From positions 6,577 through 70,576 of the forward strand of contig DASZFO010000380.1 of NCBI GenBank assembly GCA_035939775.1: DNA of 64,000 bases. The letters are read 5' to 3'. Of this stretch, positions 3,313-57,600 are shown in pieces. The stretch comes from Pirellulales bacterium. Its GTDB lineage: Bacteria; Planctomycetota; Planctomycetia; Pirellulales; DATAWG01. Position 1 is the stretch's first letter. Every line of letters starts with the position of its first letter. The notes below the pieces were generated by a model that saw only the letters and a program-made list of their open reading frames with translations, was not told the DNA's origin and did not search any database. Both the position numbers and the translations under genes were made by a program.

Positions 3313-5802
3313 ATGGAAATGCGCAAAGCTCATCAACTCTCAGCAGCGGCGCTGTTACTGGCCGCGATAACCGCCACCGCTCGCGCGGCCGACCCGTCGC
3401 TAGCCGATGCGCAGCGACTATTTCTCAGAGGCGCGTACGCCGAGGCTGGTGAGATGTTCGGCCAATTGGCGGAGAAGGAGCCGGCGGCGGTGGTTGGAGC
3501 CGCTCGCTGCCTATCGTCCGTCGGTAAGACGGACGAGGCGGTGACGCTCCTTGAAGCAGCAGCGAAAAAGCGTAACGCAAACGGCGAGATTCATGCCGAG
3601 TTGGCCCGATTGGCCTTGGAGCGAGGGGATTACAGGGAAGCCGAAGATCGGGCGCTCTTCACGATTTGCGGGTGGCCCAATGAGATGCCTGCCGCCGCCC
3701 AAGCGAAATGGACCCTTGCGGAACTGCGTTGTCGCGAAGGTCGGCTCGATGAGGCTCAGAGAATCTACAAGCGGCTCGTGGATTTCCACAATTCTGCGGA
3801 TGAGATCAAGGACCCAGACGCGCTGCGGTACATTGGCTTGTGCGCCGCTCAATACGCCCGCTGGACTCGGCAGAGCGACCAATTCCATTTTCTTGTCAAC
3901 GAACTGTATCCCGACATTCTCAAGCTCGACAAAGACTATTGGCCGGTCCATTACGAGGCGGGGCTGCTCTATTTGGAGAAGTTCAATCAGGCCGACGCTG
4001 CCGCAGAATTCAAAGCGGCGTTGGCGATCAATCCGCAGGCGGCCGAAGTCCACGCCGCCCTCGCCAGCCTCGCTTTGCAGAATTTCGAACTGTCCGAGGC
4101 GCACGCATCGATCAAGCGAGCGCTGGAAATCAATCCGCGGCTCCTCTGGGCGCGGCAGCTTCAGGCCGATGTGCAACTTGCCAATTTCGAGCCGGCGGAA
4201 GCAGTCGAATCACTCAAGGAAACGCTCAAGCTCAATCCGCTCGACGAGCGAACGCTCGGCCGGCTCGCGGCTGCGTACGCCGGAATGGACGGCGTGCCCG
4301 AGAAAGTCGCCGGCACTCGGCTCGGCCGGCTGATCGACGAAGTTTCCACCCACAATCCGCACGCCGGAGAGTTCTTCACGGCGCTGGCCGACGGGCTGGA
4401 TCGACTCAGCCGCTATCCGGACGCCGCCCGTTTCTATCGCGCGGCGATCGAGCACATGCCGCAGCTTGTCGCTCCGCGCGGGCAATTGGGGCTGGTCACC
4501 ATGAGACTCGGCAATGAGATCGAGGCCGACAAGCTGCTCCGCGAATCGTTCGATATCGACCCGTTCAATGTCCGCGTGAGCAACACGCTCAAGGTACTCG
4601 ACGTGCTTGCCGGCTACGCCACGATCGAGACGGACCATTTCGTCATCAAGTTCGACCGCGCTCAGGACGAATTCCTGGCGCACAATGCGGCGAAATACCT
4701 CGAAGGCGAGGTCTATCCGCAGTTGGTCAAGAAATTCGGTTTTCAGCCCGAGGGGAAGTCGCTGTTCGAGATTTTCAGCCGCGCGAAGAATACTAACGGA
4801 CACGGCTGGTTCAGCGCTCGGATGGTCGGCCTGCCGTACATTGGCACGGTCGGGGCCTGCGCCGGGCGAATGGTGGCCATGCAATCGCCGAACGACGGGC
4901 CGCACAAGTTCAATTGGGCGCGTGTGCTGCGGCATGAATTCGTGCACGTCGTGAACCTCCAGCAAACGAACTTCAACATCCCGCATTGGTTCACGGAGGC
5001 CCTGGCGGTGCAGAACGAGGGCTTTCCGCGGCCGCCGCAGTGGGATAGTCTGCTCGTCGATCGGATGGCGAAAGGAAAGCTCTACAACCTCGAAACAATC
5101 GACTCGGGGTTCATTCGTCCGAAATCGAGCGACGACTGGGCGATGGCCTATTGCCAGGCGGAGTTGTATGCCGACTACATGCTCGACCGCTTCGGGCCCG
5201 ACGCACTGGCCAAGATGCTCGCCGGCTATTCCGACAATGTGAACACGCGCACTGCCATCCGCCGTTCGTTCGGATTCGAGCCGGCCGATTTCGAGAAGGG
5301 ATACGTCGAGTATCTGAAAAAGATTGTCGCGGGCATTGGGCAAAGCCGGCGAGGCGTCCAGTCGCTCAAGGCACTCGCGCGGGAGTATCTGAAGGCGGGC
5401 GAAGATCAGAAGCTATTCAACGTGCTCGTCAAGCTGGTGGAATTGGATCCCGACGATTTGCCGATGCGGAAGAAGCTGGCGCAATTGGCTCTCGCGGAGA
5501 AAAACTACGATTCAGCCGCCTGCTGGGCCAAACAAAGCCTGTTTATCGACGTACAAGATGTGGATTCGCACGAGACGCTTGCCGAGGCGCTGCTCGGTCG
5601 GCAAGAATATGCAGCCGCCGTGGAAGAACTCGAAGCGGCGGTCAAGCTGGAGCCGAAGACCCTCAGCCTGCAACTCTCCCTGGCCGACGCATACGTCCGC
5701 GCCGGTCAAACTGAAAAGGGCAGGGGAGCGCTCAACGCGATCCTGGCAGTGGACGCAAACTTTCCCGGCGCCGCCGAAATGTTGGAGAAACTGAAACCGT
5801 GA
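3313..5802 (+). CDS. Secreted TPR-repeat protein with an embedded HExxH (peptidase MA-like) domain
   Basis: 829 aa. Signal-like N-terminus AALLLAAITATARAADP. Multiple TPR-like helices flank the metalloprotease motif LRHEFVHVVN. Confidence 0.7.
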   Translation: MEMRKAHQLSAAALLLAAITATARAADPSLADAQRLFLRGAYAEAGEMFGQLAEKEPAAVVGAARCLSSVGKTDEAVTLLEAAAKKRNANGEIHAELARLALERGDYREAEDRALFTICGWPNEMPAAAQAKWTLAELRCREGRLDEAQRIYKRLVDFHNSADEIKDPDALRYIGLCAAQYARWTRQSDQFHFLVNELYPDILKLDKDYWPVHYEAGLLYLEKFNQADAAAEFKAALAINPQAAEVHAALASLALQNFELSEAHASIKRALEINPRLLWARQLQADVQLANFEPAEAVESLKETLKLNPLDERTLGRLAAAYAGMDGVPEKVAGTRLGRLIDEVSTHNPHAGEFFTALADGLDRLSRYPDAARFYRAAIEHMPQLVAPRGQLGLVTMRLGNEIEADKLLRESFDIDPFNVRVSNTLKVLDVLAGYATIETDHFVIKFDRAQDEFLAHNAAKYLEGEVYPQLVKKFGFQPEGKSLFEIFSRAKNTNGHGWFSARMVGLPYIGTVGACAGRMVAMQSPNDGPHKFNWARVLRHEFVHVVNLQQTNFNIPHWFTEALAVQNEGFPRPPQWDSLLVDRMAKGKLYNLETIDSGFIRPKSSDDWAMAYCQAELYADYMLDRFGPDALAKMLAGYSDNVNTRTAIRRSFGFEPADFEKGYVEYLKKIVAGIGQSRRGVQSLKALAREYLKAGEDQKLFNVLVKLVELDPDDLPMRKKLAQLALAEKNYDSAACWAKQSLFIDVQDVDSHETLAEALLGRQEYAAAVEELEAAVKLEPKTLSLQLSLADAYVRAGQTEKGRGALNAILAVDANFPGAAEMLEKLKP

Positions 5803-6164
5803 GCGGCGCATCATTCGGCGATTCTGCCCCTGGAAGCGCAGCGCGCGGCGACTCGCCGCATGCCTTCACGCTGTCGAGCTTTCAGCAATTGATCCGCGAC
5901 ATGTACCTGAAAAAGGACCTCGCTCGCGGCGTGGACGGCACCTTCATGTGGCTGATCGAAGAGGTCGGCGAGTTGGCCGGGGCACTGCGCAGCGGCACCC
6001 ACGAAGAGCGGCTCGGCGAATTCGCCGACGTGCTCGCCTGGCTGGCCACGATCGCCAATGTCGTCGGAGTCGATCTGAGCGAAGCCGTCGCTCTAAAGTA
6101 CGGCACGGGCTGCCCCGGCTGTGGCCAATTGGTCTGCACCTGCGCCGATGCGGAGAAGCCATGA
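5799..6164 (+). CDS. MazG-like nucleotide pyrophosphohydrolase domain protein
   Basis: 121 aa. Core segments EEVGELAGALR and EFADVLAWLATIANVVGVDL are MazG-like. C-terminal Cys cluster CPGCGQLVCTC. GTGA overlap with the upstream stop. Confidence 0.75.
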   Translation: MSGASFGDSAPGSAARGDSPHAFTLSSFQQLIRDMYLKKDLARGVDGTFMWLIEEVGELAGALRSGTHEERLGEFADVLAWLATIANVVGVDLSEAVALKYGTGCPGCGQLVCTCADAEKP

Positions 6165-6238
6165 ACTCGCCGGTTGTGGCGTCCGTCGGCCAGTAGTGGG
6201 TGAATCTTGTGTGCAGGCCATACCAACGCGTAAATACA

Positions 6239-6520
6239 TTAAGCGGACTTGCCCGGCCCCCATTCATCGCGCCGCACCCCAAAGCTCTCCTCGGCTGAAG
6301 CGTAAGCCTCGGCGAGTGTCTCGTGCCACGTGTCTGCAACATACACGCGGTCGGACGAATAGTAGACCAGCAGATAATTGCCCGCCCCGTCGTCCGTGAT
6401 GTCGAATCCGAACGGCAGTTGCTTGGCCTCGGCATCAGTTGGGTCTGCACCCCGCCAGCCACTATGGGGCCAGCCGGTGATCCTCGTTGGTCGATCCCGA
6501 ATTGACGCGAATACTTTCAT
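6239..6520 (-). CDS. Hypothetical small protein
   Basis: Open frame; likely start is MKVFASIRD. I recognise no motif. The surrounding region looks lower in GC by eye. Confidence 0.4.
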   Translation of the reverse strand: MKVFASIRDRPTRITGWPHSGWRGADPTDAEAKQLPFGFDITDDGAGNYLLVYYSSDRVYVADTWHETLAEAYASAEESFGVRRDEWGPGKSA

Positions 6521-6797
6521 GGCACTTCGGCTGCGGCGGTTAAGGTGCCCCACGGCGTGACGCCGATCAGCAGTGTCGGCAGGCTGAATCGGAAGCGGCT
6601 GGGAGTCATTTTAGGATCCCATACAACTCCGAGCCGCCTGAACACACAGACACTTAAACCTCACCCCCCTCTATAAGACTGCCCGATGGCCGCTTGAGTT
6701 GCTGCGGTCCGTTTTCGCCGGTAGAATTTGAGGGTACTCGTGGTCAATGCGTCTCCGATCCCGTGCCATCCGATTGCGATTCTGAGAGATTCTAGAA

Positions 6798-7022
6798 ATG
6801 ATAACGATCACTTTTCCCGACCGCGAAACTGAGAAGCGTGCGTTGGCGTTCTTGATCGGCCGCTTTTCCGGCCGCGCGAATCGCGCGGGCGACCATTTCG
6901 TGCCCGAGGCGGCGCTGGAAGCGTTAGCCGACCAGAATATCCCATTTACTGTCAAGGGCAAGACAACCTATGAGCAACAGGTGGCGGCGGTACGAGGTGA
7001 TGCTTCCGCTCCGATTCAATGA
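6798..7022 (+). CDS. Hypothetical small protein (74 aa)
   Basis: ATG at 6798. Protein begins MITITFPDRETEKRALAFLIGRF. Its 3' end overlaps the start of the next small frame. Confidence 0.5.
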   Translation: MITITFPDRETEKRALAFLIGRFSGRANRAGDHFVPEAALEALADQNIPFTVKGKTTYEQQVAAVRGDASAPIQ

Positions 7023-7290
7023 CGGCCGCGAAGTGCCGGGCGAATGGTGGGCCGAGGCGTTCATCGAAGTGGTGGAGCATTTCGGGGCCGGCAGTTATGA
7101 AACACAAGTGGTTGAAGGGCGTTGAAGACAAAGCGGCGTGACGTATCGTGACGATTTGACGCGACTTGTGGTGGACGTCCCAGACACCGCCGTGAACCGA
7201 GCCTGGGTTCGTGAGTTCAAAGAGCGGTGGAAGATCCGGCTCGAACAACTCGAACTTTGGGTAGTGAGTTATCGGATTGAAATCGAATGA
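6970..7290 (+). pseudogene. Small conserved-looking gene interrupted by one in-frame TGA at 7123-7125
   Basis: Hand translation gives MSNRWRRYEVMLPLRFNDGREVPGEWWAEAFIEVVEHFGAGSYETQVVEGR-TGA-RQSGVTYRDDLTRLVVDVPDTAVNRAWVREFKERWKIRLEQLELWVVSYRIEIE. The frame stays open and protein-like after the stop. The terminal TGA overlaps the ATG of the next gene (ATGA at 7287-7290). Confidence 0.6.
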
Positions 7291-9551
7291 GTGCGAGACC
7301 GCGAAATGGAAATATGCGCCTCGCTGCTCCACATCTGATGTTCACGTTGTTGGCGGTGACATCGCAAATATCACTTGCGCGAGCCGCCGAGCCCGCGCCG
7401 GCAACGATTGAATCCATTCGCGTCGGATTCGCTGGGCACTACAAAGTCGGCTTTTGGACGCCGATTGAGGTGATCCTCTCGGCTGGCTCTCAGGGCATTC
7501 ATGGCGATCTCGAGGTCGTCGTTCCCGACGGCGATGGGGCGCCGACGCGAGTCGTCGAGCGCGGAGTTTCGCTGAAGGCGGGTGAAAAAAAGGGGACGCG
7601 ACTCTTTATCAAACCCGGTCGGCCGCACGCGCCGATCGTGGTCGCGCTGCGGGCGACTGAATACGGCGCGGCCATAGCCGAGCGGACGTTTTCGGGTGAT
7701 GAAGTGCCGGCGGCGCTCGGGTCGAAGAGCAAATCAGGCGCGGCCAAGCTGATTCTCGAGCTGGGATCACCACTGCAACTGGGCCCCTCGGTCCGCTTTA
7801 GCGAGGAGGGAGACCCCGAGGACACAGCGGTCGTTTATCTCGATGATCCGAACCAATGGCCCGACCGTTGGTTCGCCTACGACGGCGTCGATCTCATCGT
7901 GATGACGACCGGAAAGGCAGGGGTTTTCCATGGGCTTTCCGCGGCAACGCTCGACGCGCTCGGGCGCTGGCTGCGACTGGGAGGGCGGATGCTGATCTCG
8001 GTGGGCGCCAATGGGTCCGATCTGCTGACCACCGGAAAGCCGCTCGCGCGCTTCGCGCCCGGGAAGTTTATCACGACGATCCAACGACGACCGTTCGCCG
8101 CGCTGGAGAATTTCGCCGGCACGTCGGCGCCGTTGGCGGCCGAGGAAGGCGGCGATCACGCAACGATCGACGTTGCAAAGTTGGAAGCCATTCGTGGCGA
8201 AGTCGAGGCTTCGGACGATATTCCCCTCGTGGTGCGATCGGGAGTTGGCTTTGGCTTGTCGACTTTCGTGGCGGTCGATCTCGATGAGCCGCCAATTAGT
8301 CGCTGGAAGGCGCGGTCCGAGTTCCTTGACGCGCTGCTCGGGCGATCGTCGGGCGGCTCGTCGGCGCCGGCGGCACGAGAACCGAGAGGGCAGGGGATGC
8401 AGTACGGTTATGACGATCTAATCGGGCAGCTTCGTGCCGCACTCGATCAGTTTCCCAATGTGCAACTGGTTCCGTTTTGGCTGGTGGCCTCGCTGGCGGT
8501 CGGATATGTGCTTCTGCTCTTCCCGCTCGATTATCTCCTGGGCGTCAAGCTGTTGGGGCGCCATTCGCCCGGCGGCGCGACGTGGCCTTGGATTCGACTA
8601 GGAATCATTGTCGGATCGGTTTCACTTGGCGCTTGCCTGCTTGGATCGCGCTGGAAAGGGGATCGGCCGCACGGCAGCGAAGCGGACGTGCTCGACGTCG
8701 ATGTCGAAACCGGATTGGCTCGCGGCAACAGTTGGCTCAGCGTCTACAGCCCTTCAAGCCAAACCTATTCCCTCGATCTTCGCCCGAGCTGGCCTGGTCC
8801 GCACGGCGAGCCCGTCGAAACACAATTGAGCTGGCTCGGCTTGCCCGGCAACGGGCTGGGCGGAATGAATTCGCCGCCGACGGAGTTGCCGCTGTTCACT
8901 CAGCCGTATCAACTTTCGCCCAGATCCGGCGCCCTCGGGCCGGTGCCACTGGCCACCTGGTCGAGCAAATGCTTTGCCGCCCGCTGGACCTCGCCAGGCA
9001 ATTGGATCGTCACGGGCGATCTTCACGAGAACGCTGATCGGCAGTTAACTGGCACAATTCGGCTGGCCGAGAGTGCCGCCAATCCATTCGAGCTGACCCA
9101 TTGCGTTCTGTTCTACGACCGGTGGGCTTACGTGTTCGATTCGTTTTCCGCCGCCAAGCCGATTGATGTCGAACGGCTCGATCCGCGCACCGCCGAGACC
9201 TACCTCACCGAACGCCACGTCGTCAACGAAAAGGACCAGACCAATCCCTACGATCGCAATAGCTTGGATCGCGCGCGGATCCTTCAAATCATGATGTTCT
9301 ACAAGATGGCTGGAGGGCGGAAGTACGCGGGGCTTTTGAATCGAAATCAGCACGAATTGGATTTCAGCGACGAACTGGCGCTGGGGCGGGCCGTGCTGGT
9401 GGGGTTCGGTCCGCCGGCGGCAGTGCTAAGCGTCGACGGCCAGCCGCTCCCGCACGATTCCTCCGCCGAGCACCTCGCGATCTACCGCTTCCTATTGCCC
9501 GTACAGAAAGTGATGCCGGCGCAGACTCTGGGCGAGCGATTAAATCCGTAA
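7287..9551 (+). CDS. Large signal-peptide protein with two central TM helices, function unknown
   Basis: 754 aa. N-terminal hydrophobic segment LMFTLLAVTSQISLARA. TM segments LVPFWLVASLAVGYVLLLFPL and WIRLGIIVGSVSLGACLLG. No catalytic motif recognised. Confidence 0.6.
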   Translation: MSARPRNGNMRLAAPHLMFTLLAVTSQISLARAAEPAPATIESIRVGFAGHYKVGFWTPIEVILSAGSQGIHGDLEVVVPDGDGAPTRVVERGVSLKAGEKKGTRLFIKPGRPHAPIVVALRATEYGAAIAERTFSGDEVPAALGSKSKSGAAKLILELGSPLQLGPSVRFSEEGDPEDTAVVYLDDPNQWPDRWFAYDGVDLIVMTTGKAGVFHGLSAATLDALGRWLRLGGRMLISVGANGSDLLTTGKPLARFAPGKFITTIQRRPFAALENFAGTSAPLAAEEGGDHATIDVAKLEAIRGEVEASDDIPLVVRSGVGFGLSTFVAVDLDEPPISRWKARSEFLDALLGRSSGGSSAPAAREPRGQGMQYGYDDLIGQLRAALDQFPNVQLVPFWLVASLAVGYVLLLFPLDYLLGVKLLGRHSPGGATWPWIRLGIIVGSVSLGACLLGSRWKGDRPHGSEADVLDVDVETGLARGNSWLSVYSPSSQTYSLDLRPSWPGPHGEPVETQLSWLGLPGNGLGGMNSPPTELPLFTQPYQLSPRSGALGPVPLATWSSKCFAARWTSPGNWIVTGDLHENADRQLTGTIRLAESAANPFELTHCVLFYDRWAYVFDSFSAAKPIDVERLDPRTAETYLTERHVVNEKDQTNPYDRNSLDRARILQIMMFYKMAGGRKYAGLLNRNQHELDFSDELALGRAVLVGFGPPAAVLSVDGQPLPHDSSAEHLAIYRFLLPVQKVMPAQTLGERLNP

Positions 9552-11459: not shown

Positions 11460-12757
11460 AAAAAGTAGAAAGTAGACCGCCGATTGACGCTCGCGTGGGC
11501 ATGGCACCCGTGCGTTGGCCTTTCGTTCTTGCCGTCGCGGCTGCCATCGCGTTGCCGCCGAATCTCTCGCGCGCGCAAGTCAAGCCGACGGCCAAGCTTT
11601 CCAAGCAGGGATTGGAGGAAGCCCGTAACCGGATGGTCGATGAGGAGGTGATTGCCGCGGGGGTCAAGGATCCACGCGTAGTGCAGTCGATGCGGGCGAC
11701 GCCGCGGCACGAGTTCGTTACCCAATCGCAATGGCCGCTGGCCTATTACGACATGTCGTTGCCGATCGGCGACGGGCAGACGATCTCGCCCCCCGTGATC
11801 GTGGCCTATATGACCGAGCAGCTCGATCCCCAGCCAAACGACAAAGTGCTTGAAATCGGCACTGGCAGCGGCTATCAGGCGGCGGTGCTCAGCCCGTTGG
11901 TCAAGGACGTCTACTCGATCGAGATAGTCGAGCGACTCGGCAAGCATGCCGAGGCGACGCTCAAGCGGCTCAAATACGCGAACGTTCACACCAAGATCGG
12001 CGACGGCTATCTCGGTTGGCCCGATCAAGCCCCTTTCGACAAGATCATCGTCACTTGCTCTCCGGAAAAGGTGCCGCAGGCGCTAGTCGATCAACTCAAG
12101 GAAGGGGGCCGGATGCTCGTTCCGGTCGGCGAGCGATACGAGCAGGTGCTGTATCTGTTCAAGAAGGAGGAGGGCAAGCTCAAATCAGAAGCGCTGCTTC
12201 CGACGCTCTTTGTTCCGATGACCGGCAAGGCGGAAGATCAGCGGCAGGTGAAGCCCGATCCGCTTCATCCGAAGCTCGTCAACGGCAGCTTCGAGGAAAT
12301 CACGGGAACGGCCGGGGAGCCGGTCGGCTGGTATTACTGCCGGCAAATGAAGGTCGTGACCGACAAAGCCGCCCCCGACGGCCAGCGCTACGTGACTTTC
12401 TCGAACACAGAGCCAGGACGCGGCTGCCGAGCTATGCAAGGTTTTGCGATCGACGGTCGCCAGGTTCGCGAGATCGAGGTTTCGAGCATGGTCCGCGGCA
12501 GAAACATTCGCTATGGACCGTCGCGAGAAAACGATCAGCCGCAGGTATCCGTCACTTATTACGACGAGAATCGCAAAATCCTGGGGCGCGATTTCATCGG
12601 CGATTTCCCCGCCAATTTCGGGTGGCAGAAGAAACAGGCTCGATTCAAGGTGCCGGCCGCGGCGCGCGAGGCGCTCATCCACATCGGCCTCTTAGGGGCG
12701 ACGGGGGAAGTCTCCTACGACGATGTTCAGCTCCACGCGATCAGTAGCGCCAAATGA
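11456..12757 (+). CDS. pcm: Protein-L-isoaspartate O-methyltransferase with N-terminal signal/anchor and an extra C-terminal domain of about 170 aa
   Basis: Start taken at MKKVESRPP (ATGA overlap with the FKBP stop, coordinates from the ORF track). PIMT core: RHEFV..VLEIGTGSGYQAAVL..GGRMLVPVG. The C-terminal segment NGSFEEITG..GWYY.. looks jelly-roll-like. Confidence 0.8.
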   Translation: MKKVESRPPIDARVGMAPVRWPFVLAVAAAIALPPNLSRAQVKPTAKLSKQGLEEARNRMVDEEVIAAGVKDPRVVQSMRATPRHEFVTQSQWPLAYYDMSLPIGDGQTISPPVIVAYMTEQLDPQPNDKVLEIGTGSGYQAAVLSPLVKDVYSIEIVERLGKHAEATLKRLKYANVHTKIGDGYLGWPDQAPFDKIIVTCSPEKVPQALVDQLKEGGRMLVPVGERYEQVLYLFKKEEGKLKSEALLPTLFVPMTGKAEDQRQVKPDPLHPKLVNGSFEEITGTAGEPVGWYYCRQMKVVTDKAAPDGQRYVTFSNTEPGRGCRAMQGFAIDGRQVREIEVSSMVRGRNIRYGPSRENDQPQVSVTYYDENRKILGRDFIGDFPANFGWQKKQARFKVPAAAREALIHIGLLGATGEVSYDDVQLHAISSAK

Positions 12758-12910
12758 AGCGCGCGGGCTGACGAAAGAGGTAGGATGTGTCAAGCGAAGC
12801 GCCGACGCACCGATGTTGACCGCGCAATCGAGCCCACGGTGCCTCTGCGCGGAGGACCGCTTGACACACCCTGACGAAGTGAATTCGCTTCTGACGGTTC
12901 CGTTCATGGT

Positions 12911-14002
12911 TCATTGATATCCGGGCCGCGAGCCGACGTTGACCACTAACCCCAGCCCGAGCGCATTGGCGATCAACCCCGATCCACCATAGCTGATGAG
13001 CGGCAGGGGCAACCCGGTAATTGGAAAAAGTCCAGCGAGCATCCCGGTGTTGACTGCCGCCTGGAACGCGATCATCGCCATCACTCCCACCACGAGGAGC
13101 CGGCCGAACGCTTCTCGTGTCTCTTGCGCGATTGCCAGTCCGCGCCAAACCAATAGAAAGTAGAGCAGGAGAACGATTCCGCAGCCGATGATCCCATATC
13201 GTTCGCCAAGCACGCTGAAGATCGAGTCGGTGTGCGGTTCGGGAACCCGGCGGTCGATCGCTGCGTCGTCCACGTCGGTTTCAATCGCGCTTCCCCGCCA
13301 GCCCCCCAACGCAAACATCCGCTTTGCCTGATGCAGATGATAGCCGGCCGGGGTCGGCGACTGCCGGGGGAGGTTCTGTTCCCAAAGCGCCGTCACCCGC
13401 GACCGCTGATCGCCGCTCATTTGCGACCAGAGCGCAGGAATCGTTGCCACGCCGAGCAAGATAATGGCAACCAGATGCGGCAGCCGCGCACCGGCCGCAA
13501 GCGTCATGGCCAGCAGCACCGGCACGAAGACGAGCGAAGTTCCTAGATCGGGTTCTTTGAGAATCAGCCACAGCGGCACGAGCGTCATCGCCAGCGGCGC
13601 GACCAGACCGCTAAACTGCCGACCCGTGTCGCGATACGCCAAATAGCGCGCCAGCGCCACCACGAACGCGATCTTCGCGAACTCGGATGGCTGGAATCCA
13701 ACGCCGCCGGCGCGAATCCAGCGATGAGCGCCGTTAACCGGCGCGAAAAAGTAAACTGCGGTCAGGAGCAAAAGCATCGTGACGAACCCAGCATAGCTCC
13801 AGCGACTTGCCAGCCGATAGTTCGGGACCGCCACAGCGAACATGACCGTTAGCGCCAGGATTGACCAGACCGTCTGATGGCATACGGTTCCCGGCGCCAC
13901 TTCGGCGATTTCTTCGCAGCGGGCGACCCCAAGCCAGCCGCACGCCATAATCAAGCCAGCCACGAGTGGAATTGCCCACGGGATCCGTCGCCAGGAAACC
14001 AT
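12911..14002 (-). CDS. FtsW/RodA/SpoVE (SEDS) family protein
   Basis: 363 aa polytopic membrane protein. C-terminal SEDS signature LPLISYGGSGLIANALGLGLVVNV. Confidence 0.85.
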   Translation of the reverse strand: MVSWRRIPWAIPLVAGLIMACGWLGVARCEEIAEVAPGTVCHQTVWSILALTVMFAVAVPNYRLASRWSYAGFVTMLLLLTAVYFFAPVNGAHRWIRAGGVGFQPSEFAKIAFVVALARYLAYRDTGRQFSGLVAPLAMTLVPLWLILKEPDLGTSLVFVPVLLAMTLAAGARLPHLVAIILLGVATIPALWSQMSGDQRSRVTALWEQNLPRQSPTPAGYHLHQAKRMFALGGWRGSAIETDVDDAAIDRRVPEPHTDSIFSVLGERYGIIGCGIVLLLYFLLVWRGLAIAQETREAFGRLLVVGVMAMIAFQAAVNTGMLAGLFPITGLPLPLISYGGSGLIANALGLGLVVNVGSRPGYQ

Positions 14003-45687: not shown

Positions 45688-48600
45688 ATGTGCGGACCTT
45701 CCCTCGACAGGCGTCCCGATTCTAATCCCGGGCTTTCCACACCAAATGACGGGTGTGGCAAGTTGAATGCGCCTTGGTCGTCACGGACCCATTGCCGGGC
45801 GTCGCGCTTTTTGCCGCGGGCGACCGACCGCGGGCGTTTTCCGCGGGTTTTGGCCGTCGCTGCAATCCTCGTATTGCTCGGCGCTGCGACCGCGCAGGCC
45901 GCCAGCCAGATTTGGAACGGCAACGGCGCTGACAACAACTGGTCGACCACCGGCAACTGGGTTGGGGGCGCAGCACCGGGCTCGACTACCGTCGTGAATA
46001 ATCCCGACGTGGCCACTTTCAATGGCACCGGAACCTTCTCCAACTCGACGGTCAACATCAATTCCACCACGCAGAACATCGGCGGCATCACTTTCGACAC
46101 GGCCGCCGCTCCGGCGTACATCATCGGTGCCAACGGGTTTAACTCCGGAAACACGCTGCTCTTGACCTCCGGCGGCACGATCCAGATGACGAGTACGGTC
46201 GGCGCGGTCACGGAGACGATCAACTCTCCCATCAATATCGAGGGGAGTTACACGTTTACGGATAACTCGGCGAATCCGTCGGCATTGCTGCTATTCAGCG
46301 GCAACGTCGCCATGGCCAGCGCTGTGACGACCAACTCGGCGCTAACGGTCAACGGGGCCGGCAATACCCTAATGATGGGAGTGATTTCCAACGGCGGTAA
46401 CGGGACCGCGACTCTCGCCGTGACGAAGTCCGGGACTGGCACTCTGGCCCTGCTGGGAACGAATACGTATACGGGCGGCACGGCGATTAACGGCGGCACG
46501 CTAACCCTTGGCAGCGGCGGCGCCCTCGGCACTACCGGCACGATCAGCTTCGGCGGGGGGACCCTGCAATACTCGATCGCCAACCAAACCGACTACTCCG
46601 GCCGCTTCAGCACGTTGGCAAACCAAGCGATTAGCGTCGACACCAACAGCCAGAATGTGACCTTCGCCACCGCGCTCACCAGCACCGGCGGCAGTCTTAC
46701 CAAAATCGGCGCCGGCACGTTGACTCTTTCCGCGGCGAACACCTATTCCGGCGGCACCACGGTTTCAGGCGGCGTCCTCCAGGGGACGACCGTCACGCTG
46801 CAGGGCGGCATCACCGATAACGCCAACGTTACGTTCAATCAGAGCATCACAGGGACCTATGCCGGCGCTATTACTGGTTCCGGTGGGGTGACGGTCAACG
46901 GCAGCGGCGTCGTAACTTTTTCGGGCGCGAGCAGCTACGTCGGCCCGACCACGGTAACAAACGGCGGCACTCTCAATATCACCGGCAGCTTGACCGGTAG
47001 CGCCCTGGTGCTCGCCAACGGGGCTTTCAACGGCGCCAACGCCACCGGCACTCAAACCATGAGCGGCTGGACCGTCAACTCCGGCGCGTCCACGATCGGT
47101 GAGACGGCCGCCGGCGCCCTCGCGCTGGGCACTGCCGCGCGCAACGTCGGCGGCACGGTGAATTTCACTCCGCCCGCCGGCGGCGGCAGCATCAGCACGA
47201 CCTCGACCGGCAGCAACGGCATCCTCGGCGGTTGGGCCACTTGGGGTGGCACCGATTGGGCCGTCGGCGGCGGCACGATCGGACCTTTGGCGCCTGCATC
47301 CTACACACCCGACACCTGGAGCGCCGGCAATAACACCACGGTGACGCTGGCAACCAATTCGCCGTACAACAACGTGACGACCAACAGCCTGCAGTTCGCT
47401 GCCGCGGCGGCCGACACCGTCAGCCTCAGTGGAACGAACGTCATCACCTCGGGCGGCATTCTGGTCAGCTCCGCCGTCGCGAACAATGCCACAGCCATCA
47501 CCGGCGGGAGCTTGACCAGCGGAAACGGCACAGACCTGATCGTCAATCAGTTCGACACGTCCAGCTCATTCACAATTTCCTCGAATATCGTCGACAACGG
47601 CACCCCGACCGGCCTGACGTTGGGTGGGGCGAGCGGCGGCACGGTGATTCTCAACGGGGTGAACACTTATTCGGGTGGCACCATGGTCGCCGCCGGCGCC
47701 GGCACGCTCCAAGGCACCACGTCCGGCCTCCAGGGCAACATCACCGATAACGCCAAGCTGGTATTCAACAACCCGGCAGGCCCGACCGGAACGTACTCGG
47801 GCGTCATCTCCGGCAAGGGAACTGTTACGGTTAATACCACTGGCACCGTGGCCTTCTCGGGCGCCAATACGTACACCGGCGTGACAACCGCAGCGGGCGG
47901 CGTATTGGAACTCACGAGCCTCACGGCTTTGCCCGGCGGCATCGCCAACTCCGGCGGAGTCAGTGGGCTGACCGTGAACGGCGGCGTAATCGGTCTCGGG
48001 CTCCCCACCGCCAATTTATTTGGCCGTTCGCTTGGCGCCGGCGCCAATCAGGTGCAGTTCACCGGCAACTCGGGCTTCGCCGGATACGCTCCTGGCGCGG
48101 TGGTCAACATCGGCGCCTCGATCAGCAACACCGGCGGGACGGCGATTACCTGGTCTGCTGCGCCAACTGGCAGTTGGATTCCAAACGGCAGCACGTTGAC
48201 CCTGGGGGCTGCGGATGCGACAAGCACGATCGTGTTACAGAACGCATTTGCTTTCGGCACCGCCAGACAAACAATCAACGTGATCCATGGCGCTGGGATT
48301 CCCGCGGGAGTTCCTGACGCGATTATGAGCGGCGCTTTGAGTGCCACGAACCAGGCAGGCGGCGCAGGGATTACACTCACTGGCAACGGCACCCTGCAGT
48401 TGGTCGGTACCGCCGACAACCCCTCTTTCACCGCCATCGTCAATAGCGGTGCAACCCTCATTTTGGCCAAGACCAGCCCGGGCGTACACTCGCTCGGCGG
48501 ATCGGGTGCCGGGTTCGTCGTATTGACGATCAACAGCGGTGGCACGGTGCAATTGGGGAACATTGTTGGCGCATTGCCGATCGGCGGCGCCGGTGGCGAC

Positions 48601-51600
48601 CAAATCTTTAACGGCGGCACCGATGGCGGTGTTAATAACAGCGGCACCTTGGATCTCAACGGGACGAGCGAAGCGATCAACAATCTCTTAGGCGCTAGCA
48701 CCGGGGTCGTCACCAACACACTGGCAGGCACGACCAGCGTCCTGACCGTAGGCACTTCGGTCAGCCCTGGTTCGGTTTCGAATTACGCAGGCGTGATCCA
48801 GAACGGCGGCGCGACGAAGATCGCCGGCCTCACGGTCGGGGCCGCCTCGCTCACGCTTTCCGGAGCCAACACCTACACCGGCTTGACCACGGTCTCCAAT
48901 GCCAATCTGACGGTTACTGGCAGCTTGACTGGCACTGGATTGGTGATCGGAAACGGAGCGTTCACCGTCAATAGCGCCGCCGCCACAACCATGAATAACT
49001 GGTTGGTCGGTTCCGGCGAAGCCGTCATCAACAACAACGGCGCGGGAAACTTGGCCCTCGGATCGCTTTTCGGTCGCCTCACCGGAGGCACTGTGAATTT
49101 CACCGTTCCCGGTGCGGGCGGCGGCAGCATCAGCACCACTTCCACGGGTAGCAACGGCATCCTCGCCGGATTCGCGACCATCGGCGGCACGGATTGGGCG
49201 GTCGGCGGCGGCACAATCACGGCCCTGAACGCACCCGGTGGCACGGTTTGGGTCGACGGCACGACAAACCTAAATCTGAACGGCAACAGCAGCGCCGGTC
49301 CCGGCGCTAGCGTCAACAGCCTGCTCTTTAGCACGGCCAATTCTTACACGGTGACGCTGACAGGCGCTAACTCGATCACCAGTGGCGGCATCCTGGTCAG
49401 CTCGGTCGTGGGCGCGAACGCCAGCGCGATCACCGGCGGCAGCCTCACCAGTGGAAACGGCGGGGACCTGATCGTCAATCAATTCAATGCTGCCGGTTCG
49501 CTCACGATTTCCTCGGCAATCGTCAACAACGGCGTCACGCCCATCGGCTTGACGGTAAATGGACCGAGCGCTACGGCCGGCATGGTGGTCCTAGGCGCCA
49601 CGAACACCTACACCGGCCCGACTTTTGTCAACGGCGGCGCGATCCAAACCACGGCGGTCGGCGGCCTGCCGCGCACCACGGACGTGACGCTCAACGGCGC
49701 GCTCGACTTGGCTGGAAATGCGCAAACCATCGCTGCGCTCACCGGCGGCTTCGGCTCCCTCACCGGCGCCACGAGCGGGACGGTCACCAATTCCGGCGCC
49801 GCGACCGTGTTGACGTTCGGCGGCGGCGGCCTGAATCTTTCGACGACCTTCGGCGGCACAATCAAGAACGGCGCCGGCACGCTCGGTGTGACAATGCAGG
49901 GCTATGGCACTCAGACGCTCAACGGCGCCAACACCTACACCGGTCCGACGACCGTCAACGCCGGGGTGCTCTCGGTCCCCGGCGGAGACATCAGTGCGTC
50001 GAGCGCTTTGGTGCTCGGCGGTGGAACGTATAGCGACAGCGGCACCCAAACCGTGGCTGGCTGGAAGGTCAACGCGGCCGGCTCGACGATTACGAATACA
50101 ACAGGTTCGACGACTCTCACCCTTGGCGCCCTGGCGTCGCGGGCCGTCGGCGGCACGGTCAACTTCGGCTCCTCGACCGCCAATCCGGGCGGCACGATCA
50201 ATACCAGCACCGCCAGCGTCAACGGCATTTTGGGCGGCTGGGCCACGTTCGGCGGCAGCAATTGGGCCAACAGCGGCACGGGCGGCGGCAATATCGCCGC
50301 GGCGGCGCTCACCAACGGATCGGCCTTCACTTCCGCGACGGTGAACTACAACGTCAACGCCACCGCCACCGCCGGCGGCCTGACAGCGAACTCCATGATT
50401 ATCAACAACGGCGGCAACGCCGTCACCCTCAGCTTGGCCTCCGGGACGACGACATTTACGTCCGGCGGCATTCTGATGACCAACAATACCGGAAACAATC
50501 TTCAGACCATTCAAAATAACTCATTGACCTCCGGGAACGGCACCGACCTGATCGTCATCAACAACGACACCAACAACGGCACGAACGACGCGTTGCTGAT
50601 CAATTCACAAATCACCGGCACGATCGGTCTGACGAAATCCGGTCCCGGCGCTGTAGTCCTTGGCAGCGGATCCAACAATTTCAGTGGAGTAACCACGGTC
50701 AACACGGGTGTCCTCCAGTACAACGTCGCCGGAGCCGTAGGTCTCACTTCCGGCATCGCGATCAACTATGGCGGCACGGTAATCCCCGGGTCGGGATTTA
50801 GCGGGACGCCCCCCACTTACACGCCGCTGGCCACGTTGAGCCCATTGATCACTGCGTCCTCGACCGGCACGATCGCCCTGGCGATTAACGACGGCGAGAA
50901 TTTCACGCCGACTGCGCCCATTTTCCTCGGGGCCGCCACGAATGTTGTGTATTCCGGGACGTTGGGCGCTGTGAATGGCGCTTACCGTTTTGGGGGAGGC
51001 GGCTTGGGCACGCTCACCGTCACCGGCCCGCTTACCGGGGCCAACAGCGTGATCGTGGCCGGGAATCCCACGTCGCAGACGAACGCGAACGGCACCGGCG
51101 TGGTCAACGGCCTGATCACCAACACGACCGTCGGAAACTCGGGCGGGATCGTCGGTCTCTACAATCAAAACACTTATAGCGGCGGCACGTTGGTACAGGG
51201 TGGATTCTCAGTCGCGCAGGCCGTCTTGACGGCCGACGTGAGTTCGATCGTTTCCGGGGGCGCGCTGGTCAGCGGCCCGATCGGAACCGGCACGCTCACT
51301 TTGAACGGCAGCGGATTTCAGGATGGCAGCATGCCGATCACTTTGGCCAACTCCGTCGTGATCAATGGCACTACCACTCTCGGCAGCGCCGGCAACGGCA
51401 CGTTGACGTTCTCAAGCGCCGGCTTGACGACCCCATCCACGATCGCGCTGGAAGCCAACTCGACATTGACCGTCAACAACATCTCCACCACGTTCGCCGA
51501 ATCGGTCACCGGCGCGGCGACGCTGACGAAGAGCGGCATCGGCAATCTGGTTCTCTCGGGCACCAACACGTACAGCGGCGGGACCATTGTCAACGGAACG

Positions 51601-54600
51601 CTCGGATTTGGCACGTTGGAATTCCTCTCGCCGGCTTCGATCGCCGGCAGCGGCGCGAATGTCACGGTCAATGCCGGCGCCGCCGTGGCCGCCGGCCCGA
51701 TCTACGGCAACCTGCAATCGACTTTCTTCAATCGCATTCTCTACAACTCGGCCGGCACGATCGCGCTATCCGGCAGCAGCATCGACAACTACGACTGGAG
51801 TTCCAGCGGCGCGAATTTCATAACGGCCGGCTTGGGCGCGCTTTACGGCAACAACGTCACCTACGCCGGATCGCTCACTCCCAACGGGGTCTATCGTTTG
51901 GGTGGCGGCGGCGGCACGCTCAATTTCGCGGCGCCCTTGACCGGCGCGAGCAGCGTCACCCTGTTCAACGACAATATGGCGGGCACTGTCGTGCTCGGTG
52001 GAGAAAACACGTACAGTGGCGGCACCACCGTCAACGGCACAATCGCCGCGTCATGGTTCAGCCCAGGTCTGGCCAGCCAAACGGTCGGCAAGTTTGCCAG
52101 CGTCCTGCAGGTCAACTCGAGTTCGGCGGTGAGCGGCGGGGGCCTGCAAAGCGGTCCCGTGGGAACCGGCCCGATCGTCTTCAATAATTCGCCGGCCGTG
52201 AGCGATAACGGCGCCAACATCACGCTGGCCAATTCGTTGGTCCTCAACGCGTTCAATACGCTCAGCCTCCAATTCATGAACAACCCGTCGGCGTTCACGA
52301 GCGCCGGCAACGGCAGCTTGATTCTCGATGGCGGCCCAGGGACCACGATTTCGTTTGGCTCGCTCGCCGCCGCCCAATCGATCGCCGTCAACAACACCAC
52401 GATCATCAAAGACCCAATCGTTGGAACGTTGAGTATGGCCAATGCGGCGGGCAACCCGTACGTCACGATCGGCGGCACCGGCACGTTGATATTGGCCGCG
52501 CAGAGCACCTACTCGTTCTCCGGCACCAACAACGGCACCAACGTGAACTTCGGCACGCTCCTCTTGGCCGGGCCCTCGCTACGGTTTGCCGTTGGCTCGA
52601 CGGTTGCCGGAACGTTCGGCAGCCAAACGTTGGTCAGCGGTCCCGTCGGGACCGGGGCCTTGTCCATCAACGGCGCCGGCAACACTGGGTCGTTCCTCCA
52701 GGACAACGGCACTAACATCACGCTCGCCAATTCGGTGGTCATGAACCTGGCCAATCCGGTTAACTTCGACAGCACCGGCGCCGGCAGTCTCACCTTCGAC
52801 GGCACCGGCTTGAGCGCCCCTGCCTTTTTCAGCCTGCTCAACAACAACGTCACTTTAATCACGGATAACACCACCACGATCAACGATCGAATCATCGGCA
52901 CCGGCACGGGCGCGATTCTAACGGTCGGCAACAACAACAATAAGTATCCCTATGGCACTCTGGTTTTGAACCAACCGGCGAACGCCAGCATCACGATTCC
53001 GGGTTCGAATTTCAGCGGTGGCACGGTGCTCAACTTCGGCACTCTGGTGGTCGGGGCCAGCACGATCGTCTCGGGATCCGCGCCGATTCAGTCACTAGTG
53101 AGCGGCCCGCTCGGCACCGGCACGCTGACCTTGTCGATCAACTCTCCGATCCTGGAGGATAACGGCACGAACATCACGTTGGCCAACAACGTGTCGATCA
53201 ACGCCGGCCAAGGCGGCTTCATCATCGGCAGCACCGGCAACGGCAGCATCACCTTCGACGGCACCGGGCTGACCAGCAAGGCCACTCTCAATATGACGGG
53301 GAGTGCGACCACGACCGCGGTGAGTTGGATCGTAAACAACACGGTTACGGTCAATGATCGAATCACCGGCACGCAGTCAATCATCATGGGGGGCAACGGC
53401 AAGTTGATCCTCGGCGCGCCGCCGGCTGCCAATTCCTACTTCAATGCAATCGCCGAAGCGGGAGTGCTCCAGCTCAATGCACTTAGTTCGTTCGGCAATG
53501 GCACGGTCAGCCTCGGAGGCGTGAGCGCGACTCCGCTGAGCCTTGCCGATTTCGGCGGCACGCTGGCGGCCGGCCCGGCTTACACCAATCTGCAGGTTTC
53601 GTTCTTTAATCACATCAGCAACACGTCGGCCGGCACCATTGCGATCACGGCCAATAGTTCGGAGGCTTTCAATTGGTCGAGCAGCGGCGGATCGAATTTC
53701 GTTGCCGCCAGCCTCGGCGCCGTCGGCGGCACGTTGGCCAGCCCGGTTGTCTATAGCGGCGCGTTGACTCCCAACGGCACGACCTATCGCCTGGGTGGCG
53801 GCGGCGGCGCCCTGTCGATCACTGGGGCACTGAGCAGCGCCGACAGCCTGGTCGTTGGCGGCGGCGGCTCCGGCGGCGCCGTGATCATCAACAACGGCAG
53901 CGCGTTCACCGGCGTCACCACCGTCAGCGCCGGGACGCTGCAATTGAACACGGCGCCCGGCGTTCCCGCGAACTTCCCCGGCATCATCACCGTCGGCTCC
54001 GGCGCCGCGGTCTCCGCGGGCGCAAGTTATGGATCGATCACGACGAATCTTCTACCGCTGCTCAACGTCAGCTCGACCGGCGCGATCGCCTTGAGCGGCA
54101 GCAGCTCCGAGAGCTTGAGCTTTAGCGGCGTCCCGTCGATGAGCCTCGGCGCCGAAGCGACCACGAGCGTGACCTACTCCGGCACGCTCACGCCCGCCAA
54201 TTCAACCTATCTCTTGGGTGGCGGCGGCGGCACGCTGACCGTCTCCAGCAACCTGACTGGCGCGAATAGCCTGGTTATCGGCGGCAACGGCGCCGCCGGG
54301 ACGGTGATTCCCACCGGAACCAATACATTCAGCGGCGGGGCCACGCTGAGCGGCGGCAAGCTCCAATTGAGCGCCGGCACCGTAAGCGGAACCACAATTA
54401 CCAGCGGCCCGGTCGGCACCGGAACACTCACCCTGGCCAATGGAATCCTCCAGGACAACGGCTCTGGGATCACGCTTGCCAACTCGGTTGCGCTCGTGGG
54501 AAGCACGACGCTAACCAGCGCCGGCGGCGGCAGCTTGACCTTCGACGGCACTGGCTTGACATCCCCGGCTACCTTCACCATCGCGAGCAACCCTGTCCTT

Positions 54601-57600
54601 ACCGTGGCCAACACGACCACGATCAACGATGTGATTTCGGGCAGTTCGGGCTTTACCAAGGCGGGGAGCGGCACATTGGTATTGGGGGGCACGAATATTT
54701 ACACCGGCCCGACCAACATCCTGGGGGGAACCGTTCGCGCCACGGCGGCCGGCGCGCTGCCTGGCGGCACCACGGTGAATCTGAGCCTGGCTGGCACCCT
54801 GGACTTGAACGGCAACGCCCTCGGCTTCGATCAGTTGACCGGCGCTGGAACCGTCACGAACGGCGGCGCGGCTACTACTTTGACGTTGGGCGGCAGCGGC
54901 GGATCGAACAACTTCGCGGGCACGATCCAAAACGGCACGGGAGCCGTGGCGTTGACCAAGAGTGGAGCCGGCACCCTCACCCTGAGTGGCGCGAATACCT
55001 TTAGCGGCGGGACAACGCTCAGCGGCGGCACGCTGCGAGTTGGCAGCGGCAATGCCGCCGGCACATTGCTGGGCGCCGCCCCCGGCACCGTGCTCAGCAA
55101 TGCGACCGGCACGACCACGATTGCCAGCGGCCCATTTGGCACCGGCGCCCTGACGCTCGGCAGCGGAACGACCTTGCAAGACAGTGGTTTCGCCACGGCT
55201 TTGGCCAATCCAGTTTCGCTGGGCACGAGCGGCGGAACGTTCACATTCTCCAGCCCCAGCGCGTTGGCTGCCTTCGCCAGTCCCAATAGCGGCAGCCTGA
55301 CTTTTGACGGCACCGCCTTGGGCACGAAGGCCACTGTCAATCTCACGGGCGCCACGATCCTGACGGTGAACAACGCGTTGACGATCAATGACCAAATCAC
55401 CGGCGCGTCCGCGCTGACGATGTCGGGCAGCGGAACCTTGGTTCTGGCCAACACGAGCGGCCTGGCCAACGGCTACACCACCATGAACGTCACTTCGGGC
55501 GTGGTGCAATACAACGGGATGTCGTCCGTCGGCAGCGGCCTAGTCACCATTGGCAGTGGTGGCGCCGTGGCCGTCGGTCCAGGAATCGGCGTTTCTGGGG
55601 GCGCGACGACGACAGGAACACCCATCTCGTCGATGCTTTCATCCATCGCCACGGGCTCGTCCGGAACCATCGCGTTGACTGAGAGCGATAGCGAGAGCGT
55701 CAGTTTTGCTAGTTACCCGAGTCTCAGCCTGGGCACGACCGCCAACGTAGTTTTCTCCGGCTCGATTACCCCGGCCGGTTCAACGTATCTGTTGGGCGGC
55801 GGCGGGGGCACGCTCACGGTCGCCGGTGGCGTTCTGAGCGGCGGCAATGGTCTGACGGTCGGCGGCGCCGGCGGCGGAACCGTGGTCTTGAGTGGAAGCG
55901 ATAGCTACAGCGGCCTGACGACGGTCAACGCTGGCGTGTTGCAACTGGGTGTGGTCGGGGCCAACGGCAGCAACAATATCACCGTCAATGCGGGCGGCGC
56001 CGTTGCGGCCGGTCCCGGCTATAACGCGTCCAGCGCCACGCCGGTTTCCAGTTTGCTCTCGTTGATCACGACCGGATCGCAAGGCACTTTGGCCCTGGCC
56101 TCCAGCACGAGCGAGAACCTCAACTTCAGCAGCTATTCCGGCTTGAGCCTCGGCGCCGCGGCCGGCCCCGGCGTAGCCTACAGCGGGACGCTCACACCCA
56201 ACGGCAGCACGTATCGCTTGGGTGGCGGCGGCGGCACGCTCAACTTCGCTAGCCCCTTGACCGGCAGCAATGCGCTCGTCGTCGGGAGCGGTTCCGGCGG
56301 GTCTGTGATCCTCAGCAACGCAACGGCCACTCCGAACAACTACAGCAATGGCACCATCGTCGCCAAGGGCAATTTGGCCGTCGGACCCACCAGCAGCGTT
56401 TTCGGCAGCGGCCAGGTGCAGGTGAACAACGGCGCCACGCTGACGCTGCTTGCCCCGATCGCCCCGGTGGCGACCACCGGCTACACCCAGGACGTGATTT
56501 GGGGGCCAGGCGAGGCCAGTCCGCAATCGGGCACGACCGCCGGATTTGGCGACGGCCAGAACGCCTTGTACCAGAAGGGAATGCCCGGCTCTCAGGCCGT
56601 CGGCAACATCGGCTTGCCCGCCACACGGTCCTTTGTCAGCCTTGGCAATCCCAATGCCGTCTTCCAATTGCAGCCATACAACGCCAAGAACGACTTGGCA
56701 CTGGGATCGGGCGGAATTGCGAATAACGCGGACAATCGGCAGAATACCACCCCGACCGGCACGTTGACCTTGGCCAACCCCGGCAGCTATTCGAGCATCG
56801 CGATCTTGAACGGAACCAGCAACGGCAACAACTGGTTCAGCGCCACGCTGAATTTCAGCAATGGCACGAGCTTCACCCAACAAGGGCTGTTCGCCGGCGA
56901 CTGGTTCACGCCGTCCAACTACAACGCCCCAGTCAATGGCGTCAATCCGATCTACACCATCGCTTACAGCGGGGCTGGCTATGTGACGATGGGGAACAAC
57001 AACGGGACATTCCTCGGCGGCGGAGCTTCGAATACGAACGGCTCCCAAAATGCAGGCGGCGGACCGAACTTCGCGTTGCCTCGAACGACCCTCTACGAGA
57101 CCGATGTCCAAGTGCCGCTGGCCGACCAGAACTTGACGCTCACCTCGGTCACCATCACCCACACGGGAAGCTTCACGGGCGCGAACAACGGCAGCGGAAC
57201 CGATGCAAATGCCGGCGCCGGTCCGAATGGCCATATGAATATCATGGGCCTCAGCGGCACATTGACGGGATCGATCACCTCCGGCTCGGTTAGCTACTCA
57301 AACGACGTCAGCATCCCGGCGAGTGCCACTTCGACGATCGACTTGCAGAACGCCGAAGGGGCCACGTTCTCCGGCCAGTTGCTTATGGGCAACAACGCGA
57401 CGCTGAACGTCACCAACTCCACCGGCGCGGTCTCCGACGGTCAACTTCCCTCTGGCGGGCAACCGTTCAATCTGACTCTTGGCTCGGGCACCGTGCAAGT
57501 CCCCGCGACGAGCACGTTCAACGTCTCGTCGGGCGCGGCGGGCGGCTTGGTCAACCTGACGCTCGGCCAGTTGAATGCCGCGTCGTCCGGCGCCGTGTTG

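Follow-up and report, generated by a model that had tools for sequence, protein, structure and literature searches.

Several described systems resemble the two-gene cassette considered here, whose genes are referred to as A and B. One is the pseudogene that arises by nonsense mutation. B likewise has an early stop created by one transition, a full-length orthologue and hundreds of homologues, and its allele is fixed in the sampled population and annotated only as a short hypothetical ORF. It differs from such pseudogenes in that secondary decay is so far absent and that its family is unusually constrained. Another is the natural leakiness of UGA to tRNA-Trp. The stop in B is likewise a UGA in place of an ancestral Trp, so that leakage would give wild-type protein; unlike that system, it stands in a TGA-A context with neither a stimulatory element nor a sign of elevated read-through, and it is not conserved among relatives. 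Type II toxin-antitoxin (TA) modules, like A and B, are two small, overlapping and co-oriented genes that stand alone, are patchily distributed and occur in variable contexts. The second gene, B, is often knocked out, but its excess of knockouts over A loses significance when the size of the nonsense target is considered. A and B match no TA or defence model and their conservation far exceeds that of typical TA pairs, the cassette has no match in plasmid and phage collections, and no DNA-binding fold is predicted for A, whose AF2 model is a small alpha/beta domain (pLDDT 74) with no significant structural match. Finally, B shares its predicted beta-alpha-beta-beta-alpha-beta fold with the group formed by PII (GlnB/GlnK), CutA1 and phage SAM lyase, whereas sequence or profile similarity to this group is absent and B is known here as a monomer model.

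The window, which is the whole 64,000-nucleotide stretch analyzed here, belongs to a 94-kb contig of a metagenome-assembled genome (MAG) from a soil Pirellulales population, an NCBI third-party annotation (locus tags VGY55_25225 and VGY55_25230). We consider it likely, at roughly three chances in four, that it carries a young nonsense loss-of-function allele of B, in which Trp52 has become an opal codon by ordinary pseudogenization and with no programmed read-through. Gene A (6798..7022, plus strand), the NCBI hypothetical protein VGY55_25225, encodes 74 amino acids, is intact and comes first in the cassette. The plus-strand frame of B runs from 6970 to 7290 and contains a single stop, the TGA at 7123..7125, as a direct reading of the window confirms; it splits the gene into a 5' part (6970..7125), which comprises codons 1-51 and the premature TGA, and a 3' remnant (7126..7290) of codons 53-106. 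The 3' remnant is still open for 54 further codons up to the natural stop at 7288-7290, is conserved and has no second lesion. The natural stop of B and the ATG at 7287 of the 754-aa gene share the ATGA junction at 7287..7290 on the plus strand. An earlier note on this DNA had described the TGA, the open codons beyond it and the ATGA overlap, all of which are present as it described them. It had also allowed B to start at 6970 or at ATG 7000, with an overlap between A and B of 23-53 nt. The start is at 6970 and not at 7000, because the family N-terminus (M1, W5, R6, R7) is conserved, and the shorter overlap falls with the later start. The 53-nt overlap (6970..7022, plus strand) places the ATG of B within Tyr58-Glu59 of A (TATGAG) and the TGA of A within Asn17-Asp18 of B (AATGAT).

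The conceptual read-through product of B has 106 amino acids. Public annotation does not reflect this, as both NCBI and JGI call the truncated gene as a 41-aa ORF from ATG 7000 and leave the disruption unflagged; the NCBI entry is HEV2973295.1, hypothetical protein VGY55_25230. The gene caller of Logan takes the true start at 6970 and reports a 51-aa ORF. The low GC content that the earlier note had attributed to this islet is real, and modest: the cassette has a GC fraction of 0.570 against a window mean of 0.616, which is the 6.6th percentile of equal-sized windows.

A search over 5.8 billion protein clusters with the conceptual read-through product matched 733 database proteins. Among the 120 matches listed, nearly all are exactly 106 aa long and are covered to about 100% (E=1e-61 to 1e-47). 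Because full-length 106-aa proteins match at 100% coverage, the frame that stays open past the TGA reflects homology and not chance. Homologues that span both halves therefore exist, and none of those listed ends naturally at codon 52. In an alignment of 23 homologues, 46-47 of the 106 columns are invariant, and codon 52 is Trp in all 23, within the motif EG(H/R)WR. This is the motif that the earlier note had given, EG(H/R)W(R), and the Trp aligns with the TGA exactly where it was expected. None of the 23 close homologues has Cys or Sec at this position, and an exhaustive profile search shows that most remote relatives of B also retain Trp52. No intact allele more than 95% identical to the B of the window is present among the 5.8 billion protein clusters searched. 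Two residues set the window lineage apart. Codon 27 (7048..7050, plus strand) is TGG, a window-lineage-specific L27W change at a conserved column where the family has Leu or Ile. Codon 51 (7120..7122, plus strand), which adjoins the stop, is CGT for Arg where most homologues have His, and this H51R change is specific to the window.

P0001, which at 95% identity is the closest homologue, is encoded on L001, a JGI contig of 18 kb from a sister species. The window and L001 share the gene order TPR-peptidase, MazG-like, 93-aa gene, A, B, 754-aa gene and ABC ATPase, with a nucleotide identity of about 88% in the flanks. The overlap between A and B is identical in sequence in both, and L001 has the same ATGA junction. 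The orthologous codons read CGT TGA AGA in the window and CAT TGG AGA in L001. Since L001 has TGG, the stop is a single G-to-A transition at 7125 that took place in the window lineage after the split, as the earlier proposal of a one-base change from TGG to TGA had it. A GC3-based survey of the window for stop-split ORF pairs was of no use, as the high GC content of this DNA yields over 100 such pairs by chance; the orthologue comparison with L001 was used instead. In the syntenic 15 kb, a comparison of about 4,400 codons from 13 orthologous genes shows an in-frame stop in B alone and no frameshift.

Differences in gene content and conservation between the two lineages extend beyond B. Two genes of L001 have no tblastn match in the window and are gene-content differences between these close lineages: 3906-4211 (101 aa) and 11853-13079 (408 aa), the latter with a faint DUF3466 match. 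At 83% amino acid identity, where most local pairs reach 89-97%, the 754-aa gene (window 7287-9551) ranks among the least conserved. Pfam and NCBIfam offer no match to it, and the JGI gene caller starts it nine codons later (745 aa). Upstream of the cassette, a 37-nt intergenic stretch at 6650-6686 (ACACTTAAACCTCACCCCCCTCTATAAGACTGCCCGA) has one mismatch to L001, while the remainder of the spacer in front of A has diverged far more. This stretch is a candidate element that could regulate A and B or the divergent 93-aa gene. No sigma-70 consensus is found in 6450-7400.

A single-base difference in a metagenome-assembled genome may be a sequencing or assembly error, with TGG as the true codon. 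This was one of the options of the earlier note. An exact-sequence look-up with protein A and the 51-aa fragment found four further contigs (L002-L005), which come from the assemblies JGI 3300037421, JGI 3300037490, Logan SRR12659389 and Logan SRR12659369. All four carry the TGA, and over 2.5-6.2 kb their identity to the window is 99.9-100%. The two JGI and two Logan (SRA run) assemblies may go back to as few as two samples from a single study, and the window genome may have been built from the same reads. L002 and L003 differ from the window elsewhere by one and three SNPs, respectively, and hence are not copies of one consensus. Because the TGA recurs in these four assemblies, which cover two samples or more, a random base-call or assembly error is excluded; compared with L001, the surrounding 15 kb also shows no further stop and no frameshift. 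An error of either kind thus has a very slim chance of accounting for the codon. Within the strain population sampled, no allele other than the TGA is seen.

Programmed recoding, either as selenocysteine insertion or as a lineage-wide reassignment of UGA, has the in-frame TGA itself in its favor and nothing else. The homologues have Trp at this position and not Cys or Sec. TGA ends five of seven neighboring genes (A, B, TPR-peptidase, MazG-like and FKBP) and is a normal terminator in this genome; the TGA-A context of the premature stop recurs at two of the nearby gene ends. No stimulatory or SECIS-like structure is found, since the segment 7117-7190 folds at -22.1 kcal/mol, with z=0.02 against shuffled sequences. 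There is no Rfam match in 5500-8000, and the window contains no suppressor tRNA, its sole tRNA being a tRNA-Gly(CCC). Nor does the family share a stop at this codon: 133 of 147 full-length copies are free of stops, and codon 52 is a stop in five of the 147, which represent four lineages including that of the window. Given the Trp of the homologues, the TGG of L001, the normal use of TGA as a terminator and the lack of an RNA structure, recoding is unsupported, and we regard it as almost certainly wrong. The programmed read-through that the earlier note had listed as an option has no support. Among the options raised in the earlier note, a very recent pseudogene is the best supported, on the grounds of a real stop, a TGG orthologue and the lack of a second lesion.

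The likely consequences of the stop depend on the fold of B. The AF2 model, built from a 30-sequence alignment, has a pLDDT of 80 and a pTM of 0.72. Trp52 lies at the end of beta2, directly before a low-confidence loop (residues 52-57). A Foldseek search of the PDB with this model gave matches at E=4e-5 to 1e-3 with a probability of 1.00 and TM-scores of 0.53-0.66. The matches include a phage SAM lyase (6zm9, E=4e-5), the type III CRISPR-associated SAM-AMP lyase 9gab, CutA1 (2zfh) and GlnK (4rx6). B is thus predicted to adopt a ferredoxin-like fold of the PII/CutA/SAM-lyase type, a likeness of fold only. Homology to SAM lyases was considered and set aside, as hhalign gives none (the B profile matches the T3 SAM lyase with a probability of 0.4%). 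The best hit of a PDB profile search is an unrelated HPt domain (E=0.57), and sequence searches of Pfam, NCBIfam, PADLOC, PHROG and the PDB gave no match above threshold. The Pfam family DUF3574 (PF12098) was rejected at 14.2 bits (E=0.041), where the gathering threshold is 25 bits. Remote relatives of B form the C-terminal domains of proteins of 158-484 aa (P0142, P0148, P0184, P0200, P0267 and P0139). The N-terminal regions of these B-domain proteins are low-complexity tandem repeats (e.g., MDLNTGVVADMFGNVGLGYQS), and the proteins have no Pfam assignment.

The change of the TGG of Trp52 to an opal TGA, by G to A at 7125 in the window's Pirellulales lineage after its split from the L001 lineage, would make ribosomes end at 7123-7125 and release a fragment of 51 aa. 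On the AF2 model this fragment would comprise beta1-alpha1-beta2 only and would lack the beta3-alpha2-beta4 half of the predicted ferredoxin-like, PII/CutA-type fold. B would then be null or severely reduced while A stays intact. Full-length B, if any is made, would come solely from ordinary passive leakage at a low level, in which tRNA-Trp reads UGA as a near-cognate codon and puts back the wild-type Trp; such leakage may occur. Ribosomes that stop at 7125 would also no longer reach the ATGA site, and translational coupling to the 754-aa gene may be lost. We infer the loss of function, the loss of coupling and the recency of the mutation from these features.

The position of the stop between beta2 and beta3, at the low-confidence loop 52-57, is also compatible with a split protein, in which translation stops at 7125 and restarts at the GTG at 7138, and the two beta-alpha-beta halves reassemble. 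The GTG is in frame 12 nt past the stop and opens a listed ORF (7138..7290, plus strand) that would encode a speculative 50-aa restart product of codons 57-106. Nonsense codons of the family, described below, do lean toward codons 46-65. However, that clustering is marginal after scan correction, no Shine-Dalgarno-like sequence precedes 7138, and a start-capable codon 57 occurs in only 21% of intact copies. In the other copies with a stop at W52, the first in-frame start lies no earlier than codon 64, within beta3. Re-initiation after the stop was rejected for want of a consistent restart codon, and a functional split protein is very improbable. The 50-aa restart product is absent from the protein collection.

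If nonsense loss is the correct reading, the mutation is probably young, as no further lesion has accumulated in the 3' half, which still appears constrained. Nei-Gojobori omega against L001 is 0.07 upstream of the stop (codons 1-51) and 0.15 downstream of it (codons 53-106), with a value of 0.14 for gene A. Downstream of the stop there are seven synonymous and four non-synonymous differences from L001 and no second lesion, while by our own estimate about 11 non-synonymous differences are expected if the 3' half had been neutral over the whole window branch. The few changes in the 3' half mean that the stop is young relative to the divergence of about 12%, or that the 3' half is still under selection. 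At an omega of 0.15, neither relaxed selection nor further decay is detected in codons 53-106. A young mutation would leave the 3' half intact, but so would continuing selection for a read-through protein. In the family as a whole, relaxed selection on copies with stops was also considered and rejected, because rare residues are not in excess there (1.85, compared with 2.47 for intact copies). This result, too, agrees with either account. The comparison between L136 and L139, which share one stop and have no downstream differences, is without power for this purpose.

Constraint on the downstream half is part of the case for a tolerated or selected leaky stop, in which tRNA-Trp decodes UGA in a few ribosomes and supplies a trace of wild-type B. 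Such a stop would be favored if B at full dose is costly, for example because it is toxin-like. The residue replaced is Trp, so that near-cognate read-through restores the wild-type residue, and W52 was changed to a stop independently in the window, in L037, in L043 and in the L136/L139 lineage. About 8% of copies carry one nonsense codon and are otherwise pristine. The leakiest TGA context in E. coli is TGA-C, which is the context in L037 and L043. The context in the window, however, is the TGA-A that also ends two neighboring genes, and there is no stimulatory structure. Other copies use TAG and TAA as well, at Gln, Arg, Lys and Tyr codons where read-through would not give the wild-type residue, and the recurrence at W52 is not significant without the discovery case. 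On balance, a leaky stop that is maintained for its leakage seems unlikely.

The stops in other copies of B were surveyed in 160 other loci. These are the best 80 retrieved of the 345 cassette loci in GTDB (one genome per species) and the best 80 of the at least 509 in JGI metagenomes. Stops occur in an otherwise intact B in 13 of the 160 (8%), at nine codons and with all three stop codons. W52 is replaced by TGA in L037 and L043 and by TAG in L136 and L139, which represent one lineage. Q46 is replaced by TAG in L071, L128 and L158. TGA replaces R20 in L055, R60 in L100 and R65 in L162, and TAG replaces W79 in L073 and K84 in L155. L163 carries two stops in one copy, with TAA at both Y59 and Q78. 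Twelve of the 14 stops outside the window are GC-to-AT transitions. Because each stop-bearing copy is nearer to an intact relative than to another stop-bearing copy, the stops have independent origins, except for the shared stop of L136 and L139. Nonsense codons at many positions and of three types disfavor recoding specific to one site. Nonsense loss is a common fate of B and of the cassette, and it is not tied to one site. Other lesions are also seen. In L152, a T-to-G change turns codon 58 of A from TAT to TAG, which truncates A at Tyr58 and destroys the ATG of B. L114 is a decayed cassette with a 1-nt deletion at the A/B junction and several rare substitutions, and L146 has a 1-nt deletion in A and an intact B.

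The stop patterns were tested against a one-step nonsense target model. The nonsense events include four at W52 and three at Q46, and 10 of 14 fall in codons 46-65. They may be read as a sign that the opal codon is a recurrent, selected attenuation of a costly and possibly toxin-like or nucleotide-targeting B, in which leaky decoding or the N-terminal half would keep residual function while A is retained. The recurrence at W52 has P=0.003-0.03 with the window included and about 0.08 without it (our estimate from target weights), and W52 as a mutational or selective hotspot was rejected as unproven. The clustering in codons 46-65 has a nominal P of about 7e-5 and a scan-statistic P of 0.01-0.13, so that it amounts to a hint once scan-corrected. 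Stops are found in B at 13 of 161 loci and in A at 2 of 155 (Fisher P=0.006). The nonsense target of B is 2.2-2.5-fold larger than that of A, and the normalized P is 0.11-0.35; an excess of B knockouts as a sign of a toxin was set aside as not established, since it is not significant after this normalization. Selected attenuation is quite doubtful, and ordinary nonsense loss remains our preferred account of the TGA.

The TGA itself is a minor matter, a strain-level knockout that public databases list as a hypothetical protein of 41 aa. More interest attaches to the cassette, which is strongly conserved, uncharacterized, present in more than 10 phyla and frequently interrupted by single nonsense codons. 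It has no assignment in Pfam, NCBIfam, PADLOC or PHROG. Gene A has 2959 homologues with a mean column identity of 91%. Copies of B share a mean amino acid identity of 0.77, whereas identity at their shared four-fold degenerate sites is only 0.36 and synonymous sites are saturated, which points to an old divergence under very strong purifying selection. The A-to-B offset is 172 nt in all 67 metagenome loci scored, and the GTDB loci have the same spacing. Cassettes are patchily distributed over Planctomycetota, Acidobacteriota, Nitrospirota, Nitrospinota, Latescibacterota, Methylomirabilota, Armatimonadota, Chloroflexota, Gemmatimonadota, Ignavibacteriota and Entotheonella, among others. Their neighbors vary by locus and sometimes include PemK or HicB-like genes. 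No promoter or terminator consensus and no conserved flank was found; the one common feature is a GGAGG-like ribosome-binding site in front of A. A search of the literature for the sequence motifs of the family found no paper. Such a combination, extreme constraint where the gene is present and clean knockouts that are frequent, would be expected if the function were accessory and costly under some conditions. The allele of the window, null for B by our reading and intact for A, would offer a natural genetic contrast to the intact sister lineage.

Two further features of the window were observed. An antisense ORF of 126 aa on the minus strand (6952-7332) crosses all of B without a stop. A conserved antisense gene over B was rejected, as no more than 70 of 147 homologues keep the corresponding frame open; an antisense gene is thus not the cause of the conservation of B, and the ORF is probably a chance product of composition. 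At about 46000-63500, the minus strand has a long series of adjoining open segments whose GC3 is very high (0.75-0.91), which suggests one or more very large genes, or an unusual composition.
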